DNA of 64,000 nt from positions 191,719 through 255,718 of the forward strand of contig QPGO01000040.1 in NCBI GenBank assembly GCA_008632985.1, read 5' to 3'. The notes under the pieces were generated by a model. That model did not search any database. It was given only the letters and a program-made list of their open reading frames with translations, and had not been told where the DNA came from. The stretch's first letter is position 1; every line of letters begins with the position of its first letter. Below are positions 3,944-37,006 of the stretch, piece after piece. The position numbers were made by a program, and so were the translations under genes. Origin of the DNA: Psammoneis japonica (lineage: Eukaryota).

Positions 3944-6201
3944 CTACTCAAAGCGAACTATCAGTCGCGCTCCGGCCCCAGATTCGTGGGTTTTCACCTT
4001 TCTTGCGCCTCTTGAGGATCTGTTCAGCAAAAACAATTTGATTGCATTTCCCGCCTTGTAATCGCTGCGATCGACGACTTCCTGTATCACCGCAGCGACG
4101 TCGCCAAGGCTGTTGTACTCGTCTGCATTCCATGTAGGAAGTCCCTTTATATGTACAGTAGCTCTTGTCTTTCTGGCCTTAGATATTTGTCTGGAACCAC
4201 GCTCAAGTGGAATCGCATTTCCAATTGCTTCTCCTCTAACAACGCCAGATAATGCGTTCCCTGTATGAGACTTCCCTCTGGCCATCATTTCTAGTCTAGC
4301 CTCCAGTATGGTCGCACCTTGAGGGATAGGCACGTTTGCGAAACGGTAGGCAAGTTTTCTGGACTTCTTCGACCACAGCGTGTGCCCTTGCCCTCTCGCG
4401 TTGACCTTACCCGAGTTTAATTCCGCGTAATCATCGACATCATGAGAGACTCGAAGGATGATTTCATTGACACCGGTTTCCTTGCCAACTGGTTGTATTG
4501 GTGGCGCGTCTGCACACTTCGAATGTGACGAGTCTCCGTCGTCGTCAAGATATGCAATCACCCGAGCATAATCTGGAGACCCAAACCTGCGTTCGCAAAC
4601 ATGTATTACCAAATCCAAAGGCATTCCGTTCCAGCCCTCGTAACGGAACGGCTCGCTCTTTTCTGTAAGCCCAGCCAAAAGCCACGATGTGGACCTCGTG
4701 CTATGCTGTTCAACAACGGTTACGGTGTCTGCCATTCCCACAACTCCCTCATTTACTCCCTCGCCACGATTGTACATTAGGAAAAGTTCCGTTTGTGAGC
4801 CGACCAGTTTAGCCACGACATATTGATCTTCCGCATTGATTTGTCCATTGTTATAATCATCGATTCCGACAAGATTTCCGCTCCATGTTTCTGTAGATGG
4901 CGTGACAACAACATGCCGGTCTGAGTACCAACCAAGAGAAAAACTCTTCGCGCCGTTGAAACACATTTGAGGCGCATCGTCTTTAAAAAGTGAGCTCCCC
5001 ATCATGCAAGTAGAGTCCGCGTATTCAAGCCTTCCCTCTCCACTATGTCGTAACCCCAAGTTGTGGCCTGTCGGAGACAACAAAATAGGAATGAATAGTG
5101 TCCAAAGATTGATATCACACGACAATGCTGATTCAAAATGGTACGCACCGATCTCATGGAGAAGGACAATCAAATGGGTGGCAAACATGTCCTTATACAA
5201 GGAGAGGTAGTTGTGGTAGTAGGCATATCCAGCGAAGGGCATGTCGACGTCGGGTGGGAGAATATACAGGACGTGAGTAAAGTCCGCAAGGTTCTTGCCT
5301 ACAACCCCTTGGAATTTAGAAGAAACCCAATTTTGAACAGTCGTAAAGCTCACCCGTGATACGGAGTATGGGAGAGTAATGTCGACTACGCCATTTACCA
5401 CGTTGTTGCCTGTTCCTGGCACAAGATTTAGCTTTCCATTTGAGCACGCCGCGTATTGTGATACCTACAGTGACGAGTCCCGAAGCAAATGAGTGATTTG
5501 ACTAAACGCAAATGACAAAATAAAAGAGGAAATTATGCAAGCAGAGGATAGTACTCACAAGGTTGTGGGGATCACCGTCAGTTCCAAATATGTCATCCGA
5601 AAGTTGAGCAGCTGACATTGATGGTTTTTTACCAAATATGTCTAGAACTCGAACAGCTAGTACAGTGCTTGTACCAGTAAGTTGCACCAGATTTCTTCGG
5701 CGCTTCTTTGGTCTTTGTGATATCGTTGCGCCGCTTGGTATTTCCATCGTATAGGGCGACGCTATCGCGTCCGCAGCAACGGTGTCATGGTCTTTCTCAG
5801 TCTTGTCCTGAAATGTCACTGTTGTCTCGCCGCTGACAAGGTTTTTTCGTATTTTCTAAAAAAGTTTTTTGAGCTCTTGATTTCATAATATGTATCTCTT
5901 CTTCTTCGGAAATGCAATACCATGGTGTGTCTTTCGGCGTGGTTGCTTGATCGTTCTCGTCTTGCTTCAGAGCGACGCCTTCTACCAAGGTGCACGATTT
6001 GGATCGTTGGTGCTTTGACGAAAGGCACGTTTCTTCTTCTTGACTCCCTATTGTGAGAATATGTTTTTAAAATATTAGAACGAAACCAGCTAGCACAAGA
6101 GGCCGAACCAAAGCTGCAAAAACATTACTCACTTTTTCATTGATACTACCCGAGACGTTCATTTCCGATGACAAGTAAACCGCAGCCAAGGCGAGAAGCA
6201 T
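3944..6201 (-). CDS. Tandem paralog of the M11-like metalloprotease (one C-terminal module, no PKD); 5' part frameshifted
   Basis: LLHEIG|HNLGLRHSG, EYADSTCMMG and MCFNGAKS; same intron positions as the neighbour. At least two frameshifts at 5820-5900 (assembly error or decay). Start codon uncertain (6201 or 6255). Confidence 0.72.
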
Positions 6202-7088: not shown

Positions 7089-9257
7089 ATGAGATTCTCT
7101 CAGAAAAGGGATTCAATACGTCGCATGGCTTTGCTGTGTGACAACAATAGCAACGCGCTGCTTTGCTTTTATTCCCAGTTCCCACAAAAGAATTAGTATT
7201 TCTTCTTGGTTGCAGTTGCGTGCAACGACGGTGGATAAAGATGGATGTTTTGTCATGAAAAAGAATCAAGATCCATCAATATCTGACACGACAATAATTG
7301 AGAATACACCCGTGACACCGCAGCTCTTGACTCTGCCTCGTCATTCGTCGCATAATGGTGTCAATGAGATTCTGCTCAAGACGCAAGAAACGCTTCAGGG
7401 ACTTCATGAACTCGAGCACGACATTCCAATTCAACACCAGAGTAGCAAAGATCCCGATGATGACCAGGACTATGTCTTTGCCAATTCCTATGTCGACTTG
7501 GGCAAGGTTGCAACCGTGGGATTTGATTACGACTATACTCTCGTGACTTATACGGATCAGCTATTGGAGTTGATTTATGACATGGCTCTCTCGCGTCTCG
7601 TCAAGGATAGGCAATATCCGGTGGAAATGTTGAATTCAGGACTCAAGTTTGATCCAAAGTTCAGTATACGCGGTAAGTTTGTAAAATGCATTATGAATAC
7701 TTACTGAGTGCTGAATGATGTGCTTGGTCCTCGCTTAATTATTTGGAATGTTGTTCTCGCTACACAACACCGCAGGTTTGGCTGTTGACAAGGAGACGGG
7801 TTGGATTTGCCACTTGACCTATACACACCACGTGGCCGTTGCATGGGAAGGACGAGATAAGGTCCCTACGAAACGCATCTATGATGAATTTCGTGGAAAA
7901 CGTGCTCTACGGCCATCGGAACGAAGAAAGAGGCTCAAACCTTTGAATGATTTGTTTAGCATGGCCGAATGCTGTTTGATTGCCGACACGGTTCAGTTTT
8001 TCAAAGAACGTGATATACCTTTTTGTCCACGCAATGCAATTGACGACATTCTCAACAGTGTTACGGCGACGCACATTTCAGGTAAGTGACTCTTTGGCGC
8101 CCGTGCTCTCATGCTGTTTATCGCCCTTTGTGGCTGCATTGGACAGGCCCTTTTTAACGATTTTGCTACTGGTTTTCATGTCGATAATATTGCTTTTTAC
8201 GGCAACGCATATTTCAGGTGATTTTCATCGATTGGTGGCGGCAGAACCGCAATTGTACTTCCAAGCAACGCCGCATTTAAAAGATTTGCTCGATAAGCTC
8301 AAGAATGCTGGGAAACGACTTATCTTTGTCAGGTGAGACAATTGCATGAATCGCATTGCTCTTGCTTGCATGGGGCGCTCACAACAATTGTATACTTGTT
8401 ATGTTGCAGCAATTCCCCCTTTTGGTATGTCGACGCTGGAATGAAGTACGTGATTGGGCCCAACTGGAGAGAATCGTGGGATGCTGTAATTACCAGTGCT
8501 GGTAAGCCTAGATTCTATACCGACAATGAGCGACCATTCCGAGAAGTGTCTCATACGACTGGCCGTATCAAGTTTAAAAAGGTATGTGCGCGCGTTATGT
8601 CGTTTGTAGTCTAGAGTTTGCTACCGTTCTTTCTCAATTTGTTTACGTCAAAACTAGGTTACAAGTCTCGAAAAGGGTGAGGTTTACACAGAAGGATGCT
8701 TGAGCGAGCTATCAAGGCTCATGAGTGGCCTTGAGGAAAGTGGAACCCCCTCTACTGCGGACAACATTTTCGCATCTGGCGGTGGCACTCTGGCTTCGCA
8801 AAATGTGCTTTACATTGGAGACAGTCTTTTTGCTGATTTAGTGGACGCCAAGCGCGAGTTTGGTTGGACGACCGCAGCAGTGACGCCAGAGGTTGGGTAT
8901 GAAATTCAGTTGCAGAGCCAACGAGAGTTTGTTTTGGCGCAGCAAACTATTGATTTGTTGCTGAATGCTTTACGGATGCTTCAGGAAGAGCTAGGACCTG
9001 ACGTTAGAACCGACGAGGACGTGCAGGTCTTGGATAGCATTGAACGGCTCGTGTCAAAGTGGCGCGATCGACAAATCAACATGCTTGGCAATCCCTTTGG
9101 TAGCATCTTTCGGGCACGTTACCAACCCTCCTTGTTTGCGCATTCTCTGCGGCGGTATTGCGATTTGTACATGAGTTCCGTGAGTAGTTTGCGCCATTAC
9201 AGCCCCCAACATCGGTTCTACCCAGAAGATGCTCGACTTTTGGGACACGAGAGCTAA
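7089..9257 (+). CDS. HAD-family cytosolic-type 5'-nucleotidase (NT5DC/cN-II-like), possibly plastid-targeted; 5 exons
   Basis: Motifs VGFDYDYTLVTY, SNSPFWYVDAGM, AGKPRFY, VLYIGDSLFADL..AKREFGWTT and NPFGSIFR. Introns near 7673, 8082-8217, 8333 and 8582. N-terminus has a CFA-F-IP signal-cleavage-like motif but needs a 1-nt frame correction near 7105. Confidence 0.85.
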
Positions 9258-9406
9258 AGCATAGGATAATTAATCGTGTGTTAGAGAGACCCAGCTGTTC
9301 TTCAATTGTGACAGATGTCGATATTTCGCAGATGGTAGAAGCGCTCATCTTTTCATTTCATTAACAAGTGCTAAGTTTGGTTAGAGAGCCCCAGGCAAAT
9401 GCACAC

Positions 9407-9474
9407 AACTAGTGTCGCAACTTATTTCGCTGACAATTGAAACTAGTGTCACAACTTATTTCGCTGGCAATTGA
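9407..9474. repeat. 34-bp tandem duplication at the left edge of TpA-depleted domain 1
   Basis: aactagtgtcgcaacttatttcgctgacaattga (9407-9440) followed by aactagtgtcacaacttatttcgctggcaattga (9441-9474); 2 mismatches. Confidence 0.9.
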
Positions 9475-11693
9475 GTTTGAAAGTCTCCTTCGCCTTGAAA
9501 TACAGCATGTGATGGAAAGCAAAAGCCGAGCATGCTGAACAGCACACAACAACAACAAAATAAACAGATGGATGGGTGGAAGGAACAACAAAAGCAGGAG
9601 TGGAGCTGCGGCGTGGGAAAGTCCAGCAGTTGGAAAGGTGGTCGGAGAGGGCAAGACCAAAACAGGGAGATTTGGGTGGCAGGCTGAACAGGAAGAGTGT
9701 GAGCTGGAGCAGTCGGAGGAGTCAAAACAGGGTGGCTTGAGAGGAGGGGGTGGGATGATGGAAGGGGAGGGGTTGTGACAGTGGCCAGAAAAAGGAAGGT
9801 GCAAAAGTGACAGCCAGCACTGCCCAAGTGTGGTCAAAGGTAAAAGGAAGAAAAAAGATGCCTGCCTGGTTGGTGGCAGTGATGCTGGAAGAGCTGTTGG
9901 AAGAAGGTGTGCTGCAGCCTGGACACCTTTGGCTGCTTCACAAAACCCCTTGGTCTTTGTGCATTTTTGTTGCATTGATTTTAAGGCCGGTGACCAAATG
10001 TGGAAAGAATGGACCAAGAAATCATGACATCACTTTTCATTGGTTGTCACAAGGGTGGCATGTCACAGCTTGTTTTTGGCTTGAATTTTGCCAAAACAGC
10101 CAGGTGAGTGCAGAGTGCATTTGTCCACCAACTCTTGTGTTTGTTGTGCATTCTTTGTGTGTGCCAATGAAGGTCAGATGTGAATCAAAATCTTGTGCAT
10201 CATGGCAGCACGTGCTGCATTTTGGAGAATGGGTGGCTTGCACCAAGCCTCAGCTCAAGCAAAACATGGACAGATCCCAGAAAAAAGAGCACAATGCATG
10301 CAAACAAGAGTCATGGCAATTGGGCACAATGTGCTGGCAGATCTTGTTGCAGTGTCTCTGGTCCAAGCACAGCCAGGATGACCCAACCTTTCATTTTGAT
10401 GTGGGGGACAACAACTTTGGAGAACAAACTTGATGGTGTCATCACACAACAGACAATGTGCGCACACTGTGACTTGAAGCACCCTTTTTTCTGTGTGCGA
10501 TGTTTGCTGTCTGCAGCCAGCTGCACACAAGACACAAGTGTGCTCTCTTCTTTTGTTGTGCAAGCCCTCCATTTGTTTTTGAGTGTTTTGTGTTCTTTCT
10601 GACAGGCAGCAACAAGTGCTTGCAACCTTTCACACCTGAAAACTCATCTTGCACCACTGGCAAAGAGTGCCTGTCTTTCAGTGGGTGACAGCAAGAAGTC
10701 ATTTCCCACAACTTTTTTCTTGGGCCTCTTTTCTGGAAAGAGAGTGCACAAAAGAAAAGACTTGAGAGACAGCTGAGCAGCCACTGTGTGCTTGAGCAAG
10801 TCTGAATGAACCACAGTCAGACAAAGCAGAGGGGCTGGAGAGGTCAAGAGAGTTGGGAAAGCAGCCACAAGCAAGGCCCCATTGACCAAGTGGAAGATGA
10901 CAAGAGGCTTGGTTGAAGCAGCTCTCTGTCTGTTTGTGGGTCACAAAAGAGGAGCACACCTGCGGCATGGGTGGAGAGGGTGCCAATGTGGTGGTGCTGC
11001 AATTGACTTGACAGCCATCATTTGAAGTCAACAAAACTTCAGCTGGCATGCAAAAAGTTGGCACAAAAGAAGTGTTGACAAAAAAAGTGGCAGAGCATGG
11101 GTGAAGTGGCAAAAGCAGTGTGGCTGTGCAAAAAATGACAAAAAGACCTGTGTTGTCTGGGCAGGGGCTGGAGCTTGAGCCATTTGGTGAAACCTGCATC
11201 AATCAGAAAGCATGCAGGGGGTCCCACCCAGACAACCTGTGTGCTGCAATTCAGTGGGTCCAAGTCATGGCACAGCCTGGGCACTTGCCGCAACAAAGAA
11301 AAATCTGCACAGCAACACAGGCTGCTCTCTGGTTTTCTAACAACATTGGGCTGTGAAATCATCACAGTGTTGCCAAACAGCAGCTCCCTGTGTGTGGCAG
11401 ACAAAGGTGGAGGGCAGAAGCATCAAGAAGCTCAATGACAGGATTTGAACAGGATTTGGGTGCGCGCGAAACATCACGCACTGTTTGGTTTACCGCGCAC
11501 AGTTTTGTGTGCTTTAGTTCCGCGCGTTCGCGCGCGATGCAGTTTGCTTTCGAGCCACAAGGCTCACAAGAATGATGACAGCAGCCCGGTTGTGCCGACT
11601 TGCACGTCTTTTGGCTCCTGCAACGGTCTCTGAGCGGAGACTCATCTGCCATTCAGACAGCAGCAAGGAGTTGTTGTTTGAATTCTTGCCATT

Positions 11694-11711
11694 TGCCTTC
11701 AATTTCTGTCA
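11694..11711 (+). repeat. Left copy of an 18-bp direct repeat flanking the copia fragment
   Basis: tgccttcaatttctgtca, identical to 18091-18108. Confidence 0.92.
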
Positions 11712-14700
11712 GATTGACAGTCTTGCTCATTGTCAACCCATTGAGCAACCGCCATCATCGTCGTTGATTTACCGACGACGCCATTTCAATTCTGTGTGGA
11801 CCTCCGCATGTGTTCTACATACATCGGCAAGTCCACACGCATTCAACACCAGGCATCGGCAGGAATTTAACGTCACCGTCAAGTCTCCTTGCCACTGGAT
11901 GTCTGGATTGATCACACTGCTTTTGATCGCTGAAGACACGCATCAACGGCCATGGCCAAGTCTGTCCTTGATCCTCATCCCTTGACATGCCCATTCATTG
12001 GTTGACGGTCAAGAACCCTGCATGTTCAAGGATCTTCGTCGCTGAAGACATGTGTGCGTGCACATCTTCACGGCCAAGAACTTGCACCCACTCTTCGGAC
12101 CACGGTTTTGCCACCACTCTACAAGCACACCGAGTCCATTGCACCTGATCCACCCCGGACTGCTGGTGCTCTGCAGATCTGCTGGGTCCACGAGGACAAC
12201 TGTGAGAGCAAGCAGCCGTGATTGCAGCCTGCGTTGGGGCGAGGGTGCTTTCCCGCGTTTGTTCATCCGTCCACAGTGCCTGACGCCTGCGTCAACTGGC
12301 CTGCCTGATCGGGAAATCCAACCGACATAAAATAAGAACGGTTCGGGGGTCTTGTCCACCTCCAGTCAGCTCACCTGCAGGGGTTTGCAACCCGCTGCTC
12401 TGCTCGTGGGCAACCCAAAGCGCCGCCAGCTGCGGGTTCGGACGTGCCGGCACAACTCTGCGGACCGGATGGGAAGTTTAGCACTTGACAACGAATGGGA
12501 CAGCACAGCCCAGCGACTTCTGATTTTCAAGGCAGTTCAAGATTTCAAGTCAAGTCTGTTTCAAGTCAAGTCTGTTCTCACCCAAGTTTCAAGTCTACCT
12601 TCGCTTCCCAACAAGAATTGCTTGTCCTGACACCACTTTTGTCCACCATGGTTCTCACTCGTCAGCAACAAACTGATGGTTTCGAGCACGTTGTTGGAAC
12701 CGTGCTTGCCCAAGGTGCTGGGAGCCCTCTTCGTTTGGCTTTGACCCAAGATGGCACGGACTCGCATCAAGAACTGTTCACGTTCATGCCGTCCCAAATC
12801 GACTCGCTTGAGTGCGACAACGGCACTGATGTGATCCCTTTGCCCCGCGGTTATAAGAACATGTTAGCAGCTCCAATTGGTCTGTACATTGTCAAAGCAC
12901 ACGAAGGTCTTGACGTTGCCAATGACTCCTCGTTGTTCACGCATGACGAGTTCCTTGCCCACCGCCTCAGCCCCGACTGCATGTCTTCTGTGTCCATCGG
13001 CAGCTCACCCCTCGCACCTCCACATGTCACCAACCCGACCAAGGCACGTGACCCGGTGCGAGACTTCAAGCGAGGCATCAAGCGTGATCCCACCGCTTTC
13101 ACGGCTCTCAAATCCGACAAGCAGTGGCACACTTGGCACACCTCACTTGTGGCACAAGCCCGTGCCCAAGATGTCGAGTGCATTCTAGACTCGTCGTACA
13201 AACCGACCAGTCCCGAAGACAAACTGCTCTTTGCTGAACAGCAAAAGTGCATGTTCGCCGTCTTCGAACGCATCCTTCTCACCGACAAGGGCAAGGCTCT
13301 CATCCGTGAAAATGTGGGGTCTTCTGATGCCCAGACCGTCTGCCGCGCCTTGTCTGAGCATGCGCTTGCCTCCACCCGCGCATCTGTCGAGTCCTCCACC
13401 TTGCTCACGTGCCTTGCCACCGCACGTCTTGGTGATGGCACTTGGAAAGGTCCGACCCACGGGTTCATCCTTCATTGGCAAGATCAGTTGCGCAAGTGCA
13501 AGGCACTCATCCCGGCCAGTGACCACTTCTCTGAAGGACAGAAGCGCGTCATGCTCGAGAATGCCGCACACCCTGTCGAGGAACTCCGTGCTGTCAAGAA
13601 CCAAGCTGATCAGCATCGCACGCAGAGTGGCAAGAGCCTCACATGCGATCAACACTGTGGCTTGCTCCTCTCCGCGGCAGCTCAATGCGACAGTGCGTTT
13701 CAACCCAAGACGACACCTCGAGCTCCCCGACGTGCCATGTGTGCACACGATGTCTGCTCCAACGAACCGTCCGACGATGTGTTCTGCAACATTGACGTCC
13801 TTCAGGCCAATGCTGCCTGCACCCGTGGTCCCAGCCTCACCGGTGACCAATGGAAACGTCTCCCTCCCGACCACCAACGGATTTGGGATTCGTTGCCCCA
13901 TTCCTTCAAGGTGATCATCCTTGAGCATTCTCGCCCGCCTCCCCGCAACCAGCGAGCCAGCAACTGCCATGAGTCCATTGCGGCCAACCTTCACAACCAA
14001 CGCCTTGGGAGTGACGGTGATGTCAACTTGTCCAACACGACTCCTGCTGACTCTGGTGACCCTGCTCCAAATGTGGAAGCCACGTCGGATGATCCCATCC
14101 TGGCGCACCTCACCAAGCGCAAGCCACTGCCACCCGGTGATCTGCAACGTCTGTTGTCTCCTAACCAAGCCCCCAATGCCAGTCGACTGGGGCCACCCGC
14201 TGCTGCCTCTGCCCCACCAGCTTCTGCCGATGACATGGAACTTAACGGCCGCACTCACCGCCGCGTCAAAGACCACAATGTCATTTGCTCTGCCTCTGCT
14301 CATCGCTCCACATGCACTGGTGCTCTGGTCGATCGTGGGGCCAATGGCGGCATTGCTGGCGACGACGTTCGCGTCATTGCACGCACCTCTTGCCAAGTCG
14401 ACGTTCAGGGCATTGATGACCACCAATTGGTGGACATCCCCATTGTCACCGCTGGTGCCGTCATTGAGACCCAGCGTGGTCCCGTCATTGCCATCCTCCA
14501 TCAGCGCGCATGCACGGGCAAGGGCAAGACCATTCATTCCTGCGGCCAGCTCGAATGGTGCAAACAGGATGTCAACAATCGCTCTGTCAAGGTGCCCAAC
14601 GGCTTGCAACGTGTTGCCACTCCTGATGGCTGTGTCATCCCAATTGACATCAAGGGCGGCCTGCCTCATGTTGCTGTGCGACCTTGCACTGATGCCGAAT

Positions 14701-17700
14701 GGGACACCCTGCCCCATGTCATCCTCACTGGTGATGACACATGGGATCCTTCCGTCCTCGATCACTCTGTCACTGACGACGACCAGTGGTGCGACACGAT
14801 CTCTGACCTGCAGGACGATCCCACTGCCAACCCATTTGACGAACACGGCAACTGCCATCATCGTGTCGTTGTCAACGAGACCATCATGTCCGCTTCCTTG
14901 TCTGCCGATCATGCGTTGGCCCTCGATGATCACCTCATTCCGAACAACGACGTGTTCTGCGAGTGTCATCTACACGCGATTGACCCCAAGGACGATGACG
15001 TCCTGCCCCCGGAGCGCACTGTGCAGCCCAAGGACCCCCCCTTCGAGTCTCTTCGGCCTCACTTTGGCTTCCCACCTGCCGATGCGGTCCGTCGCACTTT
15101 TGACTGCACCAAGCAGTGCGCCCGCATGCCCGCCGGCACACACCTTGGGAAGGCCTGCAAATCACCCAACCCCACCCTCAATGTGCACCGCCACAACGAG
15201 CCTGTCGCCACTGACACCATTCATGCCGACACCCCGGCCATCGACTCTGGTTGCACCAGCGCCCAACTGTTTGTTGGCACCGAGTCTGCTGTCACTGACG
15301 TCTGCGGCACCAAGACGGACAAGGAGTTTGTCAACACACTCAAGGATCAGATCCGTGAGCGTGGTGCCCCATCCAAATTCATTGGCGACCGTGCTCAAGT
15401 TGAGATCAGCAACAAGGTGCTCGGGATTCTACGAGCCCTCTTCATCTCCAGCTGGCAAAGTGAGCCTCACCAGCAACACCAAAACTTTGCCGAGCGTCGA
15501 CACCAGACCGTGAAGCACATGGCAAACACTGTCATGGATCGTTTTGGTTCGCCTGCCCACACATGGCTGCTGGCGCTCATGTGCGTGTGCTTCATGCTCA
15601 ACCATGCAGCGTCCCCAAGTCTCCACTGGTGCACGCCCCTCAAGACTCTCACTGGCTCCACCCCGGACATCAGCCCATTGCTTCGCTTTCACTGGTGGGA
15701 ACCCGTGTGCTTCCACCTCGATGACTCCGATTGGCCGTCCGAATCCCGTGAGTTGCGTGGACGCTTTGTTGGCATTGCTGAGCACGTCGGCCACCAGATG
15801 ACCTTCAAGATTCTCTCTGACGAGACTCAGAAGATCCTCTGCCGGTCCAACGTCCGATCCGCCACCACCGATCCTGCCATTCGAAACCTGCGTCTTGATC
15901 CTCCTGATGGGGAGCCACCTGAACCCATCATCAAATCTCGCCATGACGACAACCCCGTCGATTCTCCTGATGGGGAGATCAGGACACCCAAGATGCCAGT
16001 TTTCGATCCGCAAGACATCATCGGACGCACCTTCCTCATGCAGCCACAAGAGGATGGACAACGCCACAGAGCTCGCATCGTCAAGGCCGTCGAAGACCAC
16101 GAATGGAAAGTGAACGGCAATCCCGAGCTCACTGAGTTCGTCTGCTCTGTCAACAACGACGAATGCGAGGAAGTCCTTGCCTGCAACGACATCATGAATC
16201 ACATTGAGCAAGAAGACGAAGACACTGCTGTTTGGAAATTTCGACGCATCGTGCCACACGAAGGACCTCTGAAGCCTCATGACCCAACCTGGAAAGGCTC
16301 AAGCTACAACATCATGCTTGAATGGGAAAGTGGGGAGATCACGTCCGAGCCTCTTGCCATCATCGCCAAGGACGACCCCATCACCTGCGCCATCTATGCA
16401 CGAGAGAACGGACTTCTCGACACTGATGGCTGGAAGCGGTTCCGCGCCATCGCGAGGCGCCAGAAGAAGCCATTTCGCATGGCCAACCAAGCCAAGCTTC
16501 GCTCCTTCCGCACTGCACCTTGCTGCAAGTGCGGATGCGAAGTTCCCCGGAACTGCAAACATGCCATGTCACCAGACGAATGCAATGGCAACCGCAAATG
16601 GGGAGACGCAACTAATCTCGAGATGGACCAACTCGGGGAATGCGAAGTCTTCCATGACTGCGGGCCCTTCGAGTCTTCCACTCCTCCTGCTGGACACAAG
16701 AAGATCCGAGTGCACCCAGTGTACGACGTGAAACACGACGGTCGCCACAAGGCACGACTTGTAGCCGATGGGCACCTCACGGACGTACCCATCGACAGTG
16801 TCTGCTCCGGAGTGGTCTCCCTCCGTGGCCTTCGGCTGATGATTTTCCTGGCCGAACTCAACGAGTTGGAGACATGGGCCACCAACATTGGCAATGCCTG
16901 CCTTGAAGCCACCACCAAGGAGAAGCTCTACATTGCAGCCGGACCCGAATTTGGCAAACTCGAAGGACACATCCTTGTCATCCACAAGGCCCTGCATGGA
17001 CTGCGCAGCTCCGGTCTCCGCTGGCACGAGCGCTTCGCCGACTGCCTGCAAGCTGAAGGCTTCTTCCCCTGCCACGCTGAACCCGACATTTGGATGCGCA
17101 GGAACGGCAACCACTGTGAATGCATTGCCGTTTGTGTGGATGACCTCGCCATTGCCATGAAGGACCCTCAATCTTTCGTCGACACTCTCACGGAAAAGCA
17201 CAAGTTCAAGCTCAAGGGTGCGGGACCCATTGAGTTCCATCTGGGTTGCGACTTTTCCCGGGATCCTGACGGCACCTTGTGCCTGTCTCCGCGCAAGTAC
17301 ATCAAGCGCATGGTCGACAGCTGCACCCGACTGTTTGGGGAGAAACCTGCCACCAACGCCCTGTCACCTCTGGAGAAGGGTGACCACCCCGAACTGGACA
17401 CTTCCGAACTGCTGGAGCCCGATGGCATTCACAAGTTCCAGTCTCTTGTTGGTTCACTCCAATGGGCAGTGTCCCTTGGTCAAATTGACATCACCACAGC
17501 CGTCATGTCACTCTCCAGCTTCCAAGCTGCGCCCCGTCAAGGCCACTTGGATCATGCCAAACGCGTCTGTGGGTGCCTCTCCAAGATGCAACACGGCGCT
17601 CTCCGCGTTCGTGCGGAAGAGCCCGACTGTTCGGATCTCCCTGCTCCGGCCTGTGAATGGATGCATTCCGTGTGCAGCGAAGCAGAAGAGATGATCCCGA

Positions 17701-18090
17701 AGGACGCTCCACCGCCCCTTGGCAAGTTCGTCACTGCCACCCACCATGTCGATGCAAACTTGTGCCATTGCATGCTCACCGGATGCTCTGTCATGGGAAT
17801 GCTCCACTTCCTCAACAAATTCCCGGCTGATTGGTTCTCTAAGAAGCAAGCCACCATGGAGACTGCGACCTGCGGGTCTGAATTTGTTGCCGCAAGGACT
17901 TGTGTCGAGCAGATTGTCGACCTGCGCATCACCCTGCACCACCTTGGCGTCCCGATCCGCAATGTCAGTTGCATGTTCGGTGACAACAAGTCGGTTGCAG
18001 ACAGTGCCACCATCCCGCACTCCAAGTTGCACAAGTGACACACCGCACTGTCGTTCCACCGTGTGCGCGAGGCAATTGCCTCTGGTCACC
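11712..18090 (+). mobile_element. Ty1/copia LTR retrotransposon (diatom CoDi-like), truncated: partial 5' LTR/leader, no 3' LTR
   Basis: Single gag-pol ORF in copia order: protease (ALVDRGANGG), integrase (ATDT..D..IGDRAQVE..QNFAERR), RT, RNase H. Homology stops abruptly after FHRVREAIASGH at ~18090. Confidence 0.95.
12648..18090 (+). pseudogene. Hypermutated gag-pol polyprotein (frame intact, many missense changes)
   Basis: About 1800 codons without a frameshift and only ~8 Tyr. CVDD at 17133-17144 replaces YVDD; also ALHGL, GNACLEA, ATCGSEF, SCMFGDN. Premature TGA at 18036-18038 falls in KLHK(R)HTALSFHRVRE (CGA->TGA). Confidence 0.92.
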
Positions 18091-18108
18091 TGCCTTCAAT
18101 TTCTGTCA
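18091..18108 (+). repeat. Right copy of the 18-bp direct repeat
   Basis: tgccttcaatttctgtca starts exactly where RNase H homology ends. Confidence 0.92.
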
Positions 18109-19029
18109 CTCAAAACAGCAAGCTCTTTCCATCATGGCAAATGGCTGAGTGGCAGCTCAGAGCTGGGGCACTGCTTGACAAGACATTGACAGCATGCTCT
18201 TTTGTTTTTTTTGCACATGGCTGCTTTTGGAGAGCCCCCATGATTTGCAAGGCATGCCAGCCAGCATGCCGCAACGTCACGTGTGCAGCAAGCTCAGCCA
18301 ACAAGAAGGCACAATGACCAAGTTTTCTGACCAAGGCTTTGAGCCCTTCTCTGCTTCTCAGATTTTGTCTTTGTCAACAGTGCTGGGAGAAAAAACTTGT
18401 GTGCACTTCCCTGTTCTGGAGCAGCCAGCTTGCTCGCTTCTCTAAAGTCAAGAACACACTTCTGCCATTCGCTGCTGTGGTTTGTGTCACATTTTCAAAT
18501 GAAGGTTTGAACAACAGCAACAAACAATGCTTGATGTGTGTGTGTGTGGTCTCTCATCATTCTTGTTTGTTGGAGAGGATGCTTTCCTCTTCAATGGTGC
18601 CAAGAAAGTGCGCACATTTCCGAGCAGAACCAACATTGTTTCTTTCTCAGCTGATGATTCCAACTCGAGATTCGATTCCAGTTCAGCACTGTGACCGACC
18701 GTCTGGAGGGGCAATAATGCACGCCAGATGCTTGGTGGCATTCATAGTCGTGTATTGGACACTTTCGCATTCAAAAATGAAACAAGATTTATGCGTAAGA
18801 ATGTCCGTCCAAAAGATACGACCGAATTGATTGAATCCTTGCAACGTGATCATTTTATGTGATGGTCATGGAACCAAACACTTAAACTGATTGAAAGCAA
18901 CAAAGAAGGAAAGAAAAGGTAAGTATCCAGCGGTTTGTGTAGTTACCATGTTTTCACAACACATGGTGGTGAACTCGACATTGCCTTTCTCTCTCTTATG
19001 TAGCACAGACAATAATCACGAGACCCATC

Positions 19030-20208
19030 ATGAAGCTCTTCGCAGCCGGACTCCTCCTCGTCCTTAGCATCGCTGGTGTCATCTCGGCCGTCAACGGAGA
19101 ACAAGGACTGCGAGCTTCTGCTTTCGAAAAGAATGAAGAAACCGACATCATCAACAGTAACTCCAACATGCGTCAGCTTGACTCGGACAGCCGGCCTTGT
19201 TTCACGGTGAAGAAAACCGCACACGGTCATTCAAAGCCGTGTACTGTGAAAGAGAAGAACAGCCGCCGTCCTGCGTCTTACATTATTGGAGGAACTCCTG
19301 TCGAGAGCGACGAGTACACCGATGGCGTCGGCATCCTTCAAGTAGCCGGTCCGGATACCGTGTACACAGACCCCTTTTGCAGCGGCACCCTAATTAGCGA
19401 GCGTGTGGTGCTTACCGCAGCTCACTGTCTTGACGTGGGCAGCCTGGGCAACCCAATCGCGGTTCCTCCTGATCAGATTAAGGTTTACTTCGGCACCAAT
19501 CCCGAGGAAGAGATATCGAGAGGCACATTTAATGACTACGTCGTTGATGTCGAAGAAACCATAATCCACCCCGACTACAACGATAGGAGGTTGTTAAAAG
19601 ATATTGCCCTAATCCGACTTGCGGTTCCGGGAACTCTTACTGGTTCCACTCCCGTCCCGCATCTTCCATCAAGCATGGCCCTCAAACGTCAAGACATTGG
19701 GACTCAACTCTACTTTGTGGGATTTGGTTTGGATGATATCAACAACCCAAGCACAACCGTGAAACGATATGGTGCTGGCGTCACCCTGGAACGCATCACT
19801 AAGGATCCTGGCCTTCGGTATGCCCAGGATGGCACTAACGGGCCTTGTTATGGAGACAGCGGTGGAGGAACCTATGTTGTCAAGGACGGCAATACTTTTG
19901 TAGCCGGCGCCGTTTCCTATGGCGATGCACAATGCAGCAGCTATGGCGTCAGCACCAAGGTCGACGAGTTTGATGATTGGATCAACGGATTAATTGGTGT
20001 TACCACATCTTCTTGTGGTGATGGGACGTGCGACCCGGATGAATCCTGCAACAACTGCGTATCGGATTGTGGTGAATGTCCCAACGAATGTGGGACAACG
20101 CAATCTGGGAAAAAATGCAAATCACCTACGCAGTGCATCTCCTGCGTTTGTGTCAAGAGAAGTAGCTCTGATAAGTTTGGCCAATGCGAAGAAAAAAGTG
20201 ATTGGTGA
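19030..20208 (+). CDS. Secreted S1 (trypsin/chymotrypsin-fold) serine protease with Cys-rich C-terminal tail
   Basis: Signal peptide, IIGG activation site, and triad motifs LTAAHC, DIALIRL, GPCYGDSGG. CGDGTC..DESC..C..DC tail. Intronless. Confidence 0.93.
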   Translation: MKLFAAGLLLVLSIAGVISAVNGEQGLRASAFEKNEETDIINSNSNMRQLDSDSRPCFTVKKTAHGHSKPCTVKEKNSRRPASYIIGGTPVESDEYTDGVGILQVAGPDTVYTDPFCSGTLISERVVLTAAHCLDVGSLGNPIAVPPDQIKVYFGTNPEEEISRGTFNDYVVDVEETIIHPDYNDRRLLKDIALIRLAVPGTLTGSTPVPHLPSSMALKRQDIGTQLYFVGFGLDDINNPSTTVKRYGAGVTLERITKDPGLRYAQDGTNGPCYGDSGGGTYVVKDGNTFVAGAVSYGDAQCSSYGVSTKVDEFDDWINGLIGVTTSSCGDGTCDPDESCNNCVSDCGECPNECGTTQSGKKCKSPTQCISCVCVKRSSSDKFGQCEEKSDW

Positions 20209-20724
20209 GACAATGAATGAATGATGAGTTGATTTGCACCCATGTGTACGTGTTTGAGGTAATTTTAGAGAAGAGAATCGACCATTTTAGAATTTCGATA
20301 AGTGAATATAAGTGTTTCTAAGCGAACTCGCATGAGACCAACCCTCTTTATTTGCTCATATTGCGACGTGCAGTCGTTGCAATTCTCAACATCGGTTCTA
20401 CACACAAGTTGATCGACATAAAAGCTACTAGAACATTAGTAGCATCCATTTGTTAGTGAGACACTGCTGATCAGTTTCTCTGCTTCTTCGTGTGTGTAGA
20501 GAGAGAGAGAGAGATGATCGCTTCCATCGGTGCTTTTTTAATCGGCCAGGGGCAACTATGCTTTAGTCTAGATTTCGATGTTTCGGATCTTTCCAGATGG
20601 TGTTCTGTGCGGCAGTCCAAGAAGAAGCTCTTTAGCATGGGATCTCAAAACAGGATGTACGCAGAGAGCGTTGGCCTTGCAAGAGATAGAGCTACTAAAG
20701 CCGGCGACCATTACTATATTGTCA

Positions 20725-22366
20725 TCATAATTCCGACGAGTGTCCCTCATCGTCACTACTCGCCATGAGTTCCTCACTTGCTGCTGTGCTACTAGTGTCA
20801 CTCGAATTGCCCAAACTCCTGCATTCATGAGTATGAATGAGTCGTTTTCTCGTCGTGGAAAATCCCATGTTTGGCAAGACATCTGCTTGAAGCATGAAAA
20901 AGTTGTACTTGACCAAGTGCATTTCGGAGTTGTGAGTTTCCGAAACACCGTGTCGCTCATCCCACTCCTTGCACAAATAACCCCAGAGCGCTTCACCTTG
21001 CTCTCCCTCGAGCTCTGCCAAGTATGGAAAGGAGCGCCACCGTCCAGGACGTGACGTCGAGGTACATGGAGCCCCCGTACCCGGCATGGACCATTCAACC
21101 GTATCCGATTTGCCCCAAACGTCCACCACGTTGCCATTCTCCAAGAGTCCGGGTGCGATTTCCCACGTTACATACTCTTCGGCTCCGACAAAAACATTCC
21201 AACGGTTATGTAACAACGTACTCCAAATGTGCTTCATGGACTGATTGCATTCTTCTGTCAATAATTCAAACCACAGGGAACCGCAAACAATACCAACAAT
21301 GCAAATAGATGAAATCGCTGTCCACCACACGGGCTCTCCCATCTGCGCTTTTGTTCCGTTGCGACCATTCTTTGTGGTCTGAGATGGAACCTGTGTTGAC
21401 GTTGTCAGACCGGGTACAAACACACTGACGGCACAATTGGCCACTAAACTGAGCAAGACGGTATTCCTCAGCGTGATTGCAATTCCAATATGCAGCGACC
21501 ACAAGAGAGCCACTGCGGTCCACTGGGTACGCGTTGCACCAAAGTAGCTCGCCACGAGCGCCACTGGAATGGCAAGTAGCTCTACCCAAACTACGGTGGG
21601 TGTCAAGAGACGTAGACCGGTGGGTCCCATGAGTGCATAAAAGTATCTAGCTCCAATGGTGTGACGAGCGTAGGTATCGAGTGCGGGCAACGGGTCTGCA
21701 TGGAACGTCCACCCACCGAGTGGGTCCGTGAGTTTACCATAGCCAGCATCAAGATATAGCCACAGCACTTGCAGTTTGATGCAAATGGTTGCCAGGTTGA
21801 TACTGTACTCGTTATCCTTTCCGACTTGCAGTTTGTTCCCTCCAATGCTCCAACATTGGTCCAGCGGCGGTAAGAAAATGGCATAAAAGAGCAAGTAATG
21901 AAAGTACCGATCGAGAATAAAATTTAACCACGTGTTTCGCAGTGTCAAGCTCAAATAGAGCCACCACGATGCAAACGCCATGGTTCTTGTGCGAATTCCC
22001 AGCGTAAAGAGTACAGAACAAATCACTTGAATCCCCAACAACACTTGCTGCGCCTGTACGGAGCCGAACCAACAGTGAATGCAGATTTTCTTGTATAATT
22101 CATCGACATCTGGCATTAATAGATGCAAGGGTAATGTGCTACAGGATTATGCAAACAAGAAAAGAAATTAAGAAACAAACGATGAACAGTACTACTTTCT
22201 TCAGAATAAGTGCTTTTGCATACCCTTGATCAGAATAAAACGCAGGTAAAACTCGAAAGCGGAGGACCAATTCACACGTCAAAAGAGTTCCGAGACAGAC
22301 ACGGTACAGAGACAAGGCCTGATAATGACAGCCCCACATGGAACGCCATCCCTTTGTCATTTTCAT
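20725..22366 (-). CDS. HTTM-domain (vitamin-K-dependent carboxylase-like) membrane protein; 2 exons
   Basis: ALSLYRVCLG..LRF....FYSDQG|TLP N-terminus, LGIRTR....SWWLYLSL..RN, QVLWLYLDAGYGK and GRWRSF; many TM segments; GT-AG intron 22139-22223. Confidence 0.75.
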
Positions 22367-22529
22367 TTATCTCTTGAGAGGCGTTGATGGTTGATGGTTG
22401 TTTGAATATAGATGTTTGCGATTTGCGATCTTTTTTTATGATGGGTGATGGGTGATGGGTGCGAGCGATCTTCCGCCGATGACGAACACAAAATGTAGTG
22501 GAAACCACTTTCTATCCCCAAATAAAAAG

Positions 22530-25500
22530 ACAGACAGACAAGCGAGCGCACCAGAAGATGACAACGCCTGTGGCACACGCCTGTGTGATGTCATCTGCTC
22601 TGACAAAAATGGCATGTTGTGCAAATTGCACAGTTCTTGGTCACACAAGTGCATTGTTTTGTCACACAAGGTTGCCATCAGAGGGGCCTCACTGATCAGT
22701 GATGAGCTGCATCATCCTGCTGCACATCATGGCTCGGGGGGGGGGGGGGTTGGTGGCTGCTGGGTGCTGCTGCCCCTCTTTTGGGCCCTCTGGCAGGCAA
22801 TGCTGAGGTGAGTGGTACAATTTTTTCACACCAAGCCTTTTCAGCCAGATCTTGGCAACCTCTGCACACTGTGGTTGCTGTTGACACAATGCGGTTGCTT
22901 CTTCATTCACCCATTCTTTCTGTTTGCATTTGAAGCTCCAAAGTCAGAAAAGAAAAATGAGTGCGCTGCTCACTCTCCCGCACACACACCAGGCATGGCG
23001 GATTGAGATGTTTGTCATGTGTGAAATTTTGGTGCACATGCACTGTTGCCTTTTGCCAGTTGCCCATCAGGACAAAATGGAGACAAAGACCTGTTCAGGC
23101 TTGCAAAGCGCAGGCGCAGTGGAAGATGTGGCGTTCCTCAGGGACACTTCATTGCCAGTGCTCTGGTGGCGTGTGTGTTGCCAGCCAGCTCAACCAACAT
23201 CTTTCAAGGTGCTGAGCAGAAGATGTTTTTGATGTCACTCTCCTTGATGAGCACTGATCTTCTCATTGACTTTTTTGTGCAGCCCAGAGTGGTGCGTGTG
23301 AGCGGGGCTGGCTGTTGTGTGATGCGCTGTCAGATGTGCCTGCTCTGGCAAGTGTCAAGTTGGATCACACTGGCTTTGATGGCAAGATTCTCTCTGGCCA
23401 GCTGCAGAAGGACAAATCCATTGCAGACAGAAAGGCAGTGACAAAAATCTCTTTGACACAAGCCAAACAACCAATGGCAGACCTCCAGATTTCTTCCATC
23501 CAGAGTTGTTGTTGCAGCCACTGGTGCTGCTTGGTTTCCAAGCTGGAGATGGGGTTCTTGATTGCCACAAACACAGCAATGTCTCATCGACAAGTCACCA
23601 ACATTTCACATGTGCACCAAATTGTGCTTGGGCAGCAGCTGGGTTGCCAAATCAGAGGACATGTGACTTCTTTTGACAGGCTGGCATGAGACACAAAAAC
23701 AGGAACCCATCCAGAACACAATGGAGCTAAAACATGATTCATCCATCAAGGCATTTTTTGCAGGCTTTGATTCATGCAAAGACCACAGCTGGGAGGAAGA
23801 CAGCTGGAGCAGTGTGCAAGAACATGCTGTCATTGTAAAGAGCTGACAGAAGCTCCTGATGACAATGAACAACTTTGCCTTCATCACACATGAAAGTGCC
23901 ATTGTGTCAACTGACACTTGTGTGATCATGACAGACAAACAACATTGGCGCAAGTCTCCACTGTTTTGATGACTGGTCATTTTGGCAAAGTTGTTTGTGC
24001 CACAAAAGTGCAACAAGGAGCAATGGGACAATTTTGCGCTGCACAAAGAAGCTGTCATGTTGCTGATGATTCCTTGAGCAAATGAACCTTCTGAAAAAAA
24101 AACTGACATGGCCTTGGTTGTTTGTTTGAGCAGGGCAGTCACTTTGCCACCATTGTTTTGTTCATTGGGTTGCAGCAAAAAATGCATTGGAAGTTCTGCA
24201 CCTCAGCATGCAGTGTTGAATGGAATGTCATGATGTGCTGGTGGGGCAAATCACCAGCAAGTGTGGAAGACATTTTTCTTCACCATTCACATCCTCTTCA
24301 ACAATTTTTCAAAGTCACACAACAATGAAGCTGCAAAACAAGAGCATCATGTGCTGGTGCACATGTGTTCTCCATTGTGAAATGTTGTGCAATTCAATGT
24401 TTTGTCCTTCCCATTGTGGCCCACTTCCAACAATCACACCATGCAATGAAAATGACATGAAAGCTGGACCATGTGATGGTTGTTCTGACTTGCCATGCAC
24501 AATGATCACCATGTGCAAATGTGGCAATGTCATGATGGCACTCCAGATGCATGCAGTCATGCTGCTGCCTGTGCCACACAACCAATGTTCACATGGCCAC
24601 AGCAGACTCCTGGCATGACTGGACCTGCTGCAGTGTGACAGCAATTGCCAGACCTGCTTTTTCATTTTTGCCAACAGCAATCCTCTGTGCCAGCAGCAGC
24701 CTTTGTGACCAGGCTGTGCCCCACATTCCAACATTGTGAAACAGGGTCAGTGCAACAAAAAAGAACAACAAGAGAAGCAAAAGGTGGAAATGCAACATCT
24801 CTGTCAAGTGGCCACCAAGCATCCTTTGCTCAAACCAAAGTGTGTGCTCCCACTGGAAAGATGTGGCCCTTGCAGAAAAAGGCAAAGCCAAAATGAAGCA
24901 TGGAGCCAAGGTCTTGCAAGGGCCCAAAACATTTGGGAAGGATGATGTCAAAACAAAGGTGAGATGGTTGGACCACAAAAAAGATGCTCAAGCTCCACAT
25001 GAGAAATGCACTCCAATCAATCCATGTCATTCTTGTGGCACACCAAGGCACCTGTGAAAAATTCCTCCTCTCAACTGATCTGATCATTGTGAAAAAACAT
25101 TGTGAGCAAACTTTGCTGTGCTGAACATGTCATCCATGGTGACCAGCACTTTGCAGGCCTTCCAACAAAGTTGAGCCAGCGTGGCAATGATGGCACAAAC
25201 CAAGAGTGCTGCATTTGCTCTGAGAAGATTTCAACAGAAAGGATGGTGTGACAACAACTGCAAAGTGTGTGTTCCCAATGTGTGCATCCATGTTTTTCCC
25301 ATTGATGCTGTTCCCCTGACATGGATGAGAAGAGGCTCCAGGACGTTCTTTTTGCAGACAGCAATGCCAACTTTGACATTTTCCATTGAACACTGCATGA
25401 CTCACAACAGTCATCAATGACACACTGTGCTGCACAGCTTCAAAGCACAGCAATGTGCCAATTGCTGACTGTGGGGTGCGTGCATCTCTTGTCCTGGATG

Positions 25501-28320: not shown

Positions 28321-28870
28321 AAAAATTAACAGCCTCCTCCCTTGCTCCGCCGGTGTGGCATGGAATCATCACCGCATTGAGCAAAGGCTGGGGTGATGCA
28401 CCTGAAGGAAAGCAAGAGGACAGCAAGCTGCAGGAAGCGTAAAGCTGACAACCCTCCTCCTCCTGAACCTTCATTTGTTGCTGATGAGGTAGAAGATTTC
28501 TTGACAGATGTTTTCTTGACTGCACAACTCGGCGTGTCGGTGCCAGTTGACGTCGGAAGAATGGCACGCCACTCCCGTAGCAGCCAGGACTTCGGTAGAA
28601 CAAATGACTTAACGATGTGGAATAACATTTAATGCAATAAGTGTTTTTGGTCCTTAATTGACTTACTTAACTCTTGCCTCTAGGTTTTGTCAATGGTCAT
28701 TTTCTATTTAACGAGTTCGGATCTCATCACTGTCAAACGACCCGGGCGTTCGCTGTCCTCGCAGAACGCGAAGACGCCGACGTTGTTTTTGTGATCACTC
28801 TCCACTGTTCCGTCCTTCCCATTTCTCTTCCCTTTTTATACGACTCCTGCAATCTGAAGAGACAATTGCA

Positions 28871-35259: not shown

Positions 35260-35576
35260 AAAAGGAGCGAGTGTTGAAGAATCGTTGTTTTTCATGTGCA
35301 TGGTGCAGAGGAGTGTATCGCATTGTTATGTGTGACAATCGGCTTTTTGGCCGCTTTAGATTTAGCTATTACAATCAATAGTTGTTGACAATTACGATTA
35401 GCACACGAGGGAGTTTTGTCGCGTAGTCCATTGGCGTTTTTGCCTTGTTAGATATAGCTGGTACTACTACTAGACTACAAACAATGCTAGTAGTTGAGAA
35501 TACTACGTTACGACAAACACCCGGTACAATAATCGTGTCAAGTATAGCCATACAACAACCACAATAGTTCCTGTTG

Positions 35577-37006
35577 TTACGACAAACACCCGGGACAATT
35601 GTGTAGCGTTCGTGCAAGTACGCATCACAATCGGCACAAAAGACGTGTTTGCAACTCGGACATTGAAATCGCAACGTTTCCTCATCCTCCTTTTTCTTCT
35701 TGCTTTGATGATTGTTCGAAATGAGATGCTTGAGACAGGCAAAGCAAACATGATCGGGACACGATGATTTGGTGACAAGATTGGAATCCAATAGTACTGA
35801 ATCACTATCGTCTTGTCGTCCATGAATCGTAGCAGCAGATGAAACAACTGCTGTAGTATCGCCTTGTTCTTGTTCTTGTTCTTGTACAATTACTTCATGA
35901 AAGGCCGGTACAGGAAAAAGAAAATGATAGGATCGTGCCAAGTGTGGTGCCAAGATTAGTTTTAATCCACACACGGCACAATCGGTTGGCAATTCCATGA
36001 CTTGCGATTGACATTGAGGACAGGTATACGCCTTGCTCGTCAATACCTTGGACGTCCGAGTCGCATGCACCAGGGTTGGAATGGCATGATTGACGTGACG
36101 GGTTGGAAAGCCAATCAGAACAAATTCACAATGACTAGTACTCGATTGCTGATTTTGTTTCTTCTTATGAGAGGGCGGTGGCACCACTTGTCCCAACAAG
36201 AGCCAATCCCTCAAGAGCGTCCCATTCATGCAGACACCCACCATGCCACCTGTCGCAGTGGCAATTTTACGACACACGTGTAATTCTGCTGCTAAATTCA
36301 AAACGGAAACCCGCACCCCCGATGTGACGAGACGTGGCATGGTTTCGGTTAAAATGTTGGAATTGTAATCACACGTGGACAGTGCTCCCATGAGTACCAC
36401 CACTTCCCGTGATGCAAATTTAGGCAAGTGTGCCAAGGACCGTCCGGCGAGTTCGAGACCGTTTTGTAACGAAAATTCACCACCCGTACTGTTGCCTACT
36501 GCTCGCAACAGCGATTCCAAGGCGAGTTTGTGTATCTTGATGTTACTCGACAGACTCGTCAACAATTCGGCTTGCCCGTTTCGCAACAGTATCAATCCCA
36601 AATGACTGAGCGGATTTTGATCAAAGTATTCGACAACAAATTGTTGCAACACTTGCACTACAACTTCAAACCGCGTGCCTCGTCCCAGCGCCGGATCTTT
36701 ATCTTGAACCCATCGACTGCCATCGACCACTACGAACAAATGACGAATCAAATCACGTACAATCCGTCCACGACGTTTTTGACTGTAATCTCCCTCGTGC
36801 AATTGCGTCGTGCGGCGTTGACGAATCGCTTCCGCACGGGAGGCCCGAGACGAGGCGAGAATTAAATTGCCCTCGTCATCCTCTTGAACGGACCATACGG
36901 CCGAGGCTTGACCCGCCGTGTCTTCCCATGCATGACGAGCAGCAGCAGTAGTATCTGCTGAAGACGTGACTGCTGCAGAAGAAGAGGTTGGTAGTGCGGA
37001 TGACAT
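35577..37006 (-). CDS. GTF2H2: TFIIH subunit p44/Ssl1
   Basis: vWA domain (IRHLFVVVDGS, EYFDQNPLSHLG, FSLQNGLE, SREVV, LSTCD, LAAELHVC) and zinc fingers YTCPQC..LPTDCAVCGLKLILAPHLARSYH and FQCPSCKHVFCADCD. The canonical end HETLHNCPGC is restored by a 1-nt insertion near 35610. Confidence 0.93.

Follow-up and report, generated by a model that had tools for sequence, protein, structure and literature searches.

The 64,000 nucleotides analysed here (the window), taken from contig QPGO01000040.1 of the diatom Psammoneis japonica, hold at positions 11436..18090 of the forward strand one dead, 3'-truncated copy of an abundant Ty1/copia-type (CoDi-like) retrotransposon with long terminal repeats (LTRs), in which the dinucleotide TpA has nearly disappeared. 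The copy most probably records an editing of TpA at the level of DNA, targeted to transposable elements and acting on both strands in transposon chromatin, by which about 90% of the TpA steps were converted to TpG or CpA. A second, slower loss, that of CpG, is superimposed on it, and both extend well beyond the element itself.

The polyprotein of this copy lies within an open reading frame (ORF) of 1847 amino acids and 5544 bp at 12495..18038 (forward strand), which contains just 20 TA; its observed-to-expected (obs/exp) ratios are 0.08 for TA, 1.65 for TG, 1.37 for CA and 0.82 for CG. Between 11462 and 18090 there are 30 TA in all (obs/exp 0.10, with CG at 0.83 and TG and CA counts of 563 and 651), where about 273 would be expected at the frequency of the other DNA in the window, about 189 at the median obs/exp of related elements and about 93 even at that of the lowest relative (Poisson p 3e-14 or smaller); in the matched regions of 79 related loci, TA obs/exp runs from 0.31 to 0.93. 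The GC content of the element is 0.566, against 0.47 in other window DNA. The original prediction had argued that a change of TA to TG or CA cannot make a stop codon, and the logic holds: 5 TAA and 3 TAG are left beside 91 TGA. Spurious ORFs of 594, 530 and 283 amino acids overlap the polyprotein on both strands (13185-14969 on the reverse strand, and other frames within 12495-18038), which they can do because TAA and TAG are almost absent. For genome annotation this means that dead polyproteins stay open and that long spurious ORFs appear in all six frames, where gene callers would probably report them.

The same loss is seen in the protein. Tyrosine makes up 8 of the 1847 residues (0.43%), in agreement with the earlier estimate of about 8 in about 1800, compared with 3.03-4.47% in the 40 relatives with which the ORF was aligned (alignment A1) and 2.86-4.97% in all 120 listed relatives, whose Tyr content was also determined. 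Cys stands at 3.84% as against 0.89% in the relatives, and His at 4.93% as against 3.52%. At the 40 alignment columns with Tyr in at least 80% of the relatives, Tyr survives at 4 in the window, and its place is taken by Cys at 26, His at 6, Phe at 3 and Arg at 1, whereas conserved residues other than Tyr are retained at 613 of 687 columns (89%; Fisher p 7e-28 against the Tyr columns). Lowering the threshold to 50% gives 60 such columns; in the window Cys stands at 36 of them, His at 10, Phe at 6 and Tyr at 5, and Leu, Arg and Trp at one apiece. All of the altered motifs that had been singled out beforehand are present where they were placed: CECIAVCVDD, for the reverse transcriptase active-site consensus YEYIAVYVDD, at 17115..17144 (codons TGT GAA TGC ... 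TGT, hence three TAY to TGY changes); GNACLEA at 16890-16910; KALHGL at 16986-17003; ATCGSEF at 17865-17885; LHHLG at 17934-17948; SCMFGDN at 17967-17987; and HPVYD with its CCA codon at 16713. The replacement of Tyr by Cys or His at conserved columns thus supports the proposal of a diatom copia element inactivated by missense while its frame was kept open.

That these are mutations of this copy was seen by comparison with its siblings. Contigs from four runs of one sample were placed on positions 9000-28999 at 80% likeness. In one run, X1, 13,465 contigs pile up between 11461 and 18091, with a summed depth of 60,000-129,000 over the element as against about 60 in the flanks; the sum is not a copy number, and the pile-up is taken to mean no more than a high-copy family. 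Transitions account for 474 of 541 differing places in X1. Among the differing places, 40 were listed, with 514 more beyond these, and 36 of the 40 lie inside the element. At 18 of the 36 listed places, those in the leader at 11436..12647, TA in the other copies stands against TG (9) or CA (9) in the window; at 10 the other copies have CG and the window CA or TG; 3 keep CG in the window and have lost it in other copies; and 5 are other changes. By these listed places, TpA and, less markedly, CpG have been lost from this copy in comparison with its siblings, which are themselves polymorphic at former TpA and CpG sites. The TpA signature is therefore specific to the copy, a mutation and not a native trait.

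The original prediction was centred on the ORF, which does carry the signature, but the effect is regional and not restricted to it: TpA-poor blocks total 19,944 bp, or 31% of the window. To the left of the element lies an older, unrecognisable flank at 9561..11435, counted to 11461 for the TG and CA numbers given here (obs/exp 0.02 for TA, 0.09 for CG, 1.76 for TG and 1.91 for CA, with 222 TG and 203 CA), present at a single-copy depth of about 63-70, and to the right an older flank at 18091-18715 (TA 0.02, CG 0.31; 66 TG and 67 CA). Two further blocks, both TpA-free and CpG-poor, occupy 22523-28269 (TA 0.02, CG 0.15; 687 TG and 681 CA) and 57026-62073 (TA 0.02, CG 0.20; 606 TG and 591 CA). 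In the remaining 44 kb of the window TA is at 0.59 and CG at 1.01, with 3252 TG and 3229 CA, and the longest gap without TA is 247 bp, as against 2437 bp in a block. The borders of the blocks are sharp, lying within about 100 bp of host genes whose own TA obs/exp is 0.5-0.7, so that by dinucleotides and by borders alike the change is confined to regions of foreign or selfish DNA, with the host genes spared.

The flanks and the other blocks have no similarity to the copia element. Like the left flank, the older blocks are present at single-copy depth, and k-mer contigs of X1 agree with the blocks save for 4 differences over 2462 bp and 8 over 3587 bp. No credible Pfam match was found among 75 stop-to-stop ORFs of the older blocks; the only match above threshold was rejected, being a 30-residue Cys-rich motif in a Cys-inflated frame. 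An Atlas look-up of their identity gave scores of at most 0.76, and a full HMMER search with one 263-amino acid ORF returned a single match (E 3e-4) and no family. The older blocks appear to be old transposon relics. The hypermutation accounts for a class of diatom DNA, full of TG and CA but without TA and CG, to which 31% of this window belongs and in which no family match is left. In the old blocks at 9561-11461, 22523-28269 and 57026-62073, ApT is also low (obs/exp 0.58-0.84) and GpC high (1.25-1.39), probably as a by-product of converted TAT/ATA and TAC/GTA contexts.

As a description of the mutation spectrum, the conversion of TA to TG or CA stands, but a second process had been missed. 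This is the decay of CpG to TpG or CpA, the expected fate of methylated CpG, which also acts in the copia copy and in the blocks. The only in-frame stop of the polyprotein frame, a TGA at 18036..18038, stands on a conserved Arg column (consensus KLHKRHT) and would have arisen by a CGA to TGA change, that is, by CpG decay and not by the TpA process. Of 53 conserved Arg columns, 7 carry His, Cys or Gln through the same decay, and many of the metagenomic relatives are CpG-poor, with obs/exp down to 0.10. The order of the losses is seen directly in the window: the copia copy has TA at 0.10 and CG at 0.83, the older blocks TA at 0.02 and CG at 0.09-0.31. Since the young copy is without TpA but has kept most of its CpG, and the old blocks have neither, it is the TpA process that runs faster. 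The 4 differences between a unique-depth X1 contig and the old flank, over 2462 bp, fall at 9714, 9901, 10191 and 11406, and one of them is a CG in the window and a TG in the contig; they suggest allelic or strain variation in the relic, possibly with CpG decay still going on.

Two metagenomic relatives look like the same process about half-way, ahead of CpG decay. Over the whole of L044 (2759 bp), TA obs/exp is 0.31, and of 27 conserved Tyr columns 13 still hold Tyr, 8 hold Cys and 6 His; in L030 (positions 2-1786) it is 0.33, and of 24 such columns Tyr stands at 14, Cys at 3, His at 5 and Phe at 2. In these two contigs, which come from other samples, some one third to one half of the conserved Tyr codons have become Cys or His. 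Both have kept 90-92% of the other conserved residues and have CG at 0.76-0.82. One of the two patterns used in searching for relatives required an intact YVDD, so converted copies are under-sampled among them.

The extent of the element was drawn from contigs of unique depth, which stop at 11461 and resume at 18091, and from loose contig ends at 11436 (before the element) and at 18086 and 18091 (behind it). The stretch 11436..12647 (forward strand), upstream of the residue that aligns with Met1 of the relatives, comprises the non-coding 5' LTR and leader; the end of the 5' LTR was not located within it. The polyprotein frame runs from its true start at 12648 to 18035, as judged from tblastn of relatives and from alignment A1, and the upstream extension at 12495-12647 is open because stops are scarce; with four relatives, the span aligned by tblastn starts at 12597-12723 and ends at 18083-18116. 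A reverse transcriptase domain (Pfam RVT_2, PF07727) occupies 16686..17321, amino acids 1398-1609 of the frame counted from 12495, with an E value of 6.2e-24, and the same copia-type domain is found in relatives P0001 and P0002 at E 1e-29. Positions 912-1017 of the A1 profile show a weak similarity to the cores of retroviral integrases (3jca_A, E 8e-4; 7usf_A, E 1e-3); with the reverse transcriptase further on, at about 1340-1560, the order of the genes would be that of copia. Pfam rve gave no match, even in intact relatives. Behind the TGA stop, an in-frame remnant, HTALSFHRVREAIASG, extends over 18039..18090, where the homology to relatives ends. The copy thus stops about 50 residues before the C-terminus of the relatives, and other copies carry different sequence after 18086-18091.

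A pair of LTRs with a target-site duplication, as in a complete element of this type, is not present, no direct repeat being found in 9000-19500 by repeat search, by self-blastn or with a purine/pyrimidine-collapsed alphabet chosen to see through transitions. The 3' LTR is missing because the copy is truncated inside the polyprotein at about 18090, which concerns the state of this copy and not the family. A tRNA-primer motif, allowed up to 2 mismatches, gave 24 matches as against 19.8 expected by chance, none of them convincing as a primer-binding site. Full-length metagenomic relatives of 1850-1900 amino acids are abundant (1044 matches, the best with 69% identity over the searched part); the closest DNA relative of the copy is 70% identical, too distant for a direct substitution spectrum.

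The closest known parallel comes from mutation-accumulation lines of the alga Bigelowiella natans, described in a bioRxiv preprint by Mettrop et al. (10.64898/2026.01.13.699255), the main text of which is used here. There, 231 of 302 nuclear point mutations fell in two integrated viral regions, and 230 of those 231 were A to G or T to C, all on TpA. Across the B. natans genome, 124 clusters of 1-kb windows combine a shortage of TpA with an abundance of CpA and TpG, and 324 coding sequences are low in TpA (mean frequency 0.0018), with reverse-transcriptase and DDE domains over-represented among them; as the enzyme, the authors put forward an ADAT2-like protein, a candidate and not a proven one (10.64898/2026.01.13.699255). 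By our calculation from the numbers given in that text, each TpA mutates at a rate of about 9e-6 per generation and has a half-life of about 80,000 generations, at which a silenced element would be saturated quickly on an evolutionary time scale. The likeness to what is seen here is close: TpA to TpG or CpA transitions, raised GC, a regional effect, and foreign or selfish DNA as the target; beside the 0.0018 of the low-TpA coding sequences of B. natans, the copia copy has a TpA frequency of 0.0045 and the older blocks one of about 0.001. There are differences as well. Bigelowiella is a chlorarachniophyte, and so a rhizarian, and Psammoneis, as a diatom, a stramenopile; the DNA affected there is integrated viral DNA, here a high-copy LTR retrotransposon near saturation; and there the mutations were seen arising in culture, whereas here there is a fossil record only. 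A coupled CpG decay and a coding-strand excess at Tyr codons distinguish the diatom case, and the words "CpG", "diatom", "retrotransposon" and "Tyr" are absent from the preprint's main text.

The events may be pictured as follows. After the copy arose, most of its 5'-TpA-3' steps, some nine in ten, would have gone to TpG or CpA by transitions. As TpA is self-complementary, a change of the A on the plus strand would leave TG and one on the minus strand CA, each site being resolved once. Tyr codons of the form TAY would become Cys or His codons, three of them inside the reverse transcriptase active-site motif, and TAA and TAG would vanish in all six frames with no new stop possible, leaving polyprotein and spurious frames open. 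The targets would be stretches of DNA, presumably silenced transposon chromatin, and not the copia copy alone; in the same blocks the slower decay of CpG to TpG or CpA would be complete only in the older ones, and would have made the terminal stop of the copia copy. We infer that the action was on DNA after integration and that its chemistry was an enzymatic deamination of adenine to hypoxanthine. A process on DNA is favoured because both products occur, because TG and CA are balanced in the non-copia neighbours, because conversion is nearly complete, and because in B. natans, according to the preprint's main text, it is resident DNA that mutates.

On the question of strands, changes of the antisense type comprise 10 Tyr to His, 2 Leu to Pro (CCA), 2 Val to Ala (GCA) and 9 leader sites of the CA type, so that the claim that both strands were hit is borne out, except that they were not hit equally at the Tyr codons. 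An ADAR-type change of A to G on the transcript strand alone is not what is found, as 10 of the 46 converted Tyr codons and 9 of the 18 leader sites carry the product of the other strand; together with the balanced flanks, these antisense products support the preference, already expressed in the original prediction, for a process on double-stranded DNA over RNA editing. The base preceding the site does not explain the choice between Cys and His (21/15 vs 5/5). At conserved columns with A-initial codons, about 20-29 T|A codon junctions would be expected, and 8 have an A to G change after T; of NTA codons about 18-24 would be expected, and 4 have become NCA and 3 survive, both expectations being taken from relatives whose codon usage differs. 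In an ancestor that was still active, selection may have favoured the silent outcome in each codon phase.

Several points weigh against this reading. The Tyr codons show an excess of coding-strand changes, 36 Cys to 10 His (p 1.6e-4), which a purely symmetric process on DNA does not predict and which the 9:9 division of the 18 listed leader sites does not share, though the two sets differ at a Fisher p of only 0.036. The excess is moderate; it touches on the strong one-strand bias that had been named beforehand as contrary evidence, but does not amount to it, and possible sources are exposure or repair linked to transcription, or a share of editing on RNA or plus-strand DNA before integration. 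The copy has no LTR pair from which an action after integration could be read directly, and editing at the moment of retrotransposition would also give copy-specific changes. The sample that supplied the contigs may be the window's own source, in which case it is not independent support. Finally, the older blocks, taken above as transposon relics, matched no known family.

The same products could be reached on DNA from the thymine side, by a modified T at TpA (5-hydroxymethyluracil, for example) that mispairs with G and gives T to C with no deamination of adenine. A sequence cannot separate A to G on one strand from T to C on the other, and some protists are known to modify T at TpA. The authors of the B. 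natans preprint, in its main text, favour adenine deamination and name their ADAT2-like candidate, without proof, and we consider the thymine route unlikely.

Editing before integration is a different matter, as it would place the event on genomic RNA or plus-strand complementary DNA (cDNA), deaminated at UpA or TpA by an ADAR- or ADAT-like activity and then reverse-transcribed and inserted, in the way that APOBEC3 hypermutates proviruses. The 36:10 excess of coding-strand A to G over T to C at Tyr codons is in its favour, as are the confinement of the changes to this copy and the preference of ADARs for a 5' U (10.64898/2026.01.13.699255, Discussion). Against it stand the B. natans process, which according to the same source acts on resident DNA, the many antisense products (His at 10 Tyr codons, NCA at 4 codons, and 9 of the 18 leader sites), and the same signature, with TG about equal to CA, in adjoining flanks and in two blocks without similarity to the element. 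A conversion of about 90% also exceeds the usual yield of one round of RNA hyper-editing, and to our knowledge ADAR is a metazoan family. Such a history seems improbable for this copy.

It is hardly conceivable that the composition is native, with an active lineage that encodes Cys and His at these positions or a variant code for TGY and CAY. The frame is indeed open for 1847 amino acids, but with TAA and TAG lost from every frame this is to be expected; none of the 120 relatives natively lacks Tyr (they have 2.9-5.0%), which speaks against active copies natively encoding CVDD or ALHG; other copies in the same genome have TA at the sites; and the copy itself is truncated, with a stop on a conserved Arg. 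A variant genetic code is excluded, as usage of Tyr, Cys and TA in the flanking host genes is normal; the adjoining trypsin-like gene has both Tyr and Cys in its Pfam-matched domain and a TA obs/exp of 0.68. Just as implausible is an artefact of sequencing or assembly, with heavily modified transposon bases miscalled as TG or CA, since, even if the blocks coincide with probably methylated DNA and the library type of the runs is not on record, the X1 k-mer contigs reproduce the blocks nearly base for base, the same run holds TA and TG/CA states within one family, the copia copy has lost TA and kept CG, miscalls would presumably not settle into a fixed mosaic of TG and CA sites, and two metagenome contigs from other projects are in the partial state.

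The mutation of TpA on DNA thus preferred resembles repeat-induced point mutation (RIP) of ascomycete fungi in being a burst of transitions at the DNA level, confined to transposons and repeats and with sharp borders, that kills by many point changes. RIP changes C to T mainly at CpA, makes TpA and stop codons, leaves AT-rich DNA behind and needs duplicated sequence. The direction here is the opposite, with TpA destroyed, stops erased and GC up (0.566 vs 0.47), so that neither the gain of TpA nor the loss of GC that go with C to T at CpA is found; and the old blocks here, like the B. natans insert in the preprint's account, are single-copy. The description of RIP as a C to T mutation of repeats is that of the abstract of PMC7296669 and of the Discussion of 10.64898/2026.01.13.699255. 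Decay of methylated CpG in diatom transposons has the same products, TpG and CpA, and is the slower of the two processes at work here, but it cannot explain the loss of TpA, which is gone from a copia copy with CpG still at 0.83. Hyper-editing of repeat double-stranded RNA by ADAR and editing of retroelement cDNA by APOBEC3 share with our case the hypermutation of retroelements by a deaminase; their substrates are RNA or single-stranded cDNA that has yet to integrate, and the changes they leave lie on one strand, those of APOBEC being G to A, whereas here both strands are changed and neighbouring non-copia DNA is affected.

In the literature, no report of a TpA signature in diatoms was found, the Bigelowiella preprint being the only match. 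A TpA-specific A:T to G:C hypermutation of selfish DNA was first described in 2026, from that single alga, and the diatom is a second, distantly related lineage; what it adds to the B. natans report, as far as the latter's main text goes, is a saturated, codon-resolved record, the temporal order relative to CpG decay, and the strand asymmetry. The saturated diatom signature and the two half-converted metagenome contigs suggest that the process is more widespread. It is quite possible, and offered here as a tentative proposal, that diatoms defend their genomes with an enzyme that acts, in double-stranded DNA, on the adenine of TpA or on the thymine paired with it. Such a defence would patrol transposon chromatin, work faster than methyl-CpG decay and be the same system as in Bigelowiella, either old within the stramenopile, alveolate and rhizarian (SAR) group or horizontally spread. 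Were this so, the enzyme would be a natural DNA adenine editor, and the excess at Tyr codons would reflect transcription or transcription-coupled repair shaping access. A second lineage aids the comparative hunt for this possible natural adenine editor of double-stranded DNA; among the 14 host ORFs of the window that were scanned, none has a Pfam match to a deaminase family.

The host genes in the window are long and uninterrupted. A gene for TFIIH p44 lies at 35375-37045 on the reverse strand, its best named relatives being from Seminavis, Bacillariaceae, Nitzschia, Fistulifera, Pseudo-nitzschia and Fragilariopsis (47-54% identity). The gene at 19030-20208, for a trypsin-like protease with a Cys-rich tail, directly adjoins a hypermutated block and is unaffected. 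Two diverged tandem paralogues at 29147-31229 and 32500-34720, about 68-70% identical as DNA, code for proteins with Laminin_G / concanavalin-like lectin domains. Units of about 375 bp, 74-86% alike, form a tandem array over 37906-41933 and inside a 692-amino acid ORF at 39867-41945 (forward strand), which has a weak match to the GLEYA adhesin domain and is probably a gene for a repeat-rich surface protein. Near the left end of the window, the neighbouring reverse-strand genes at 232-2280 and 3944-5242 both have gametolysin-type (Peptidase_M11) matches, and one of them also has a PKD domain.

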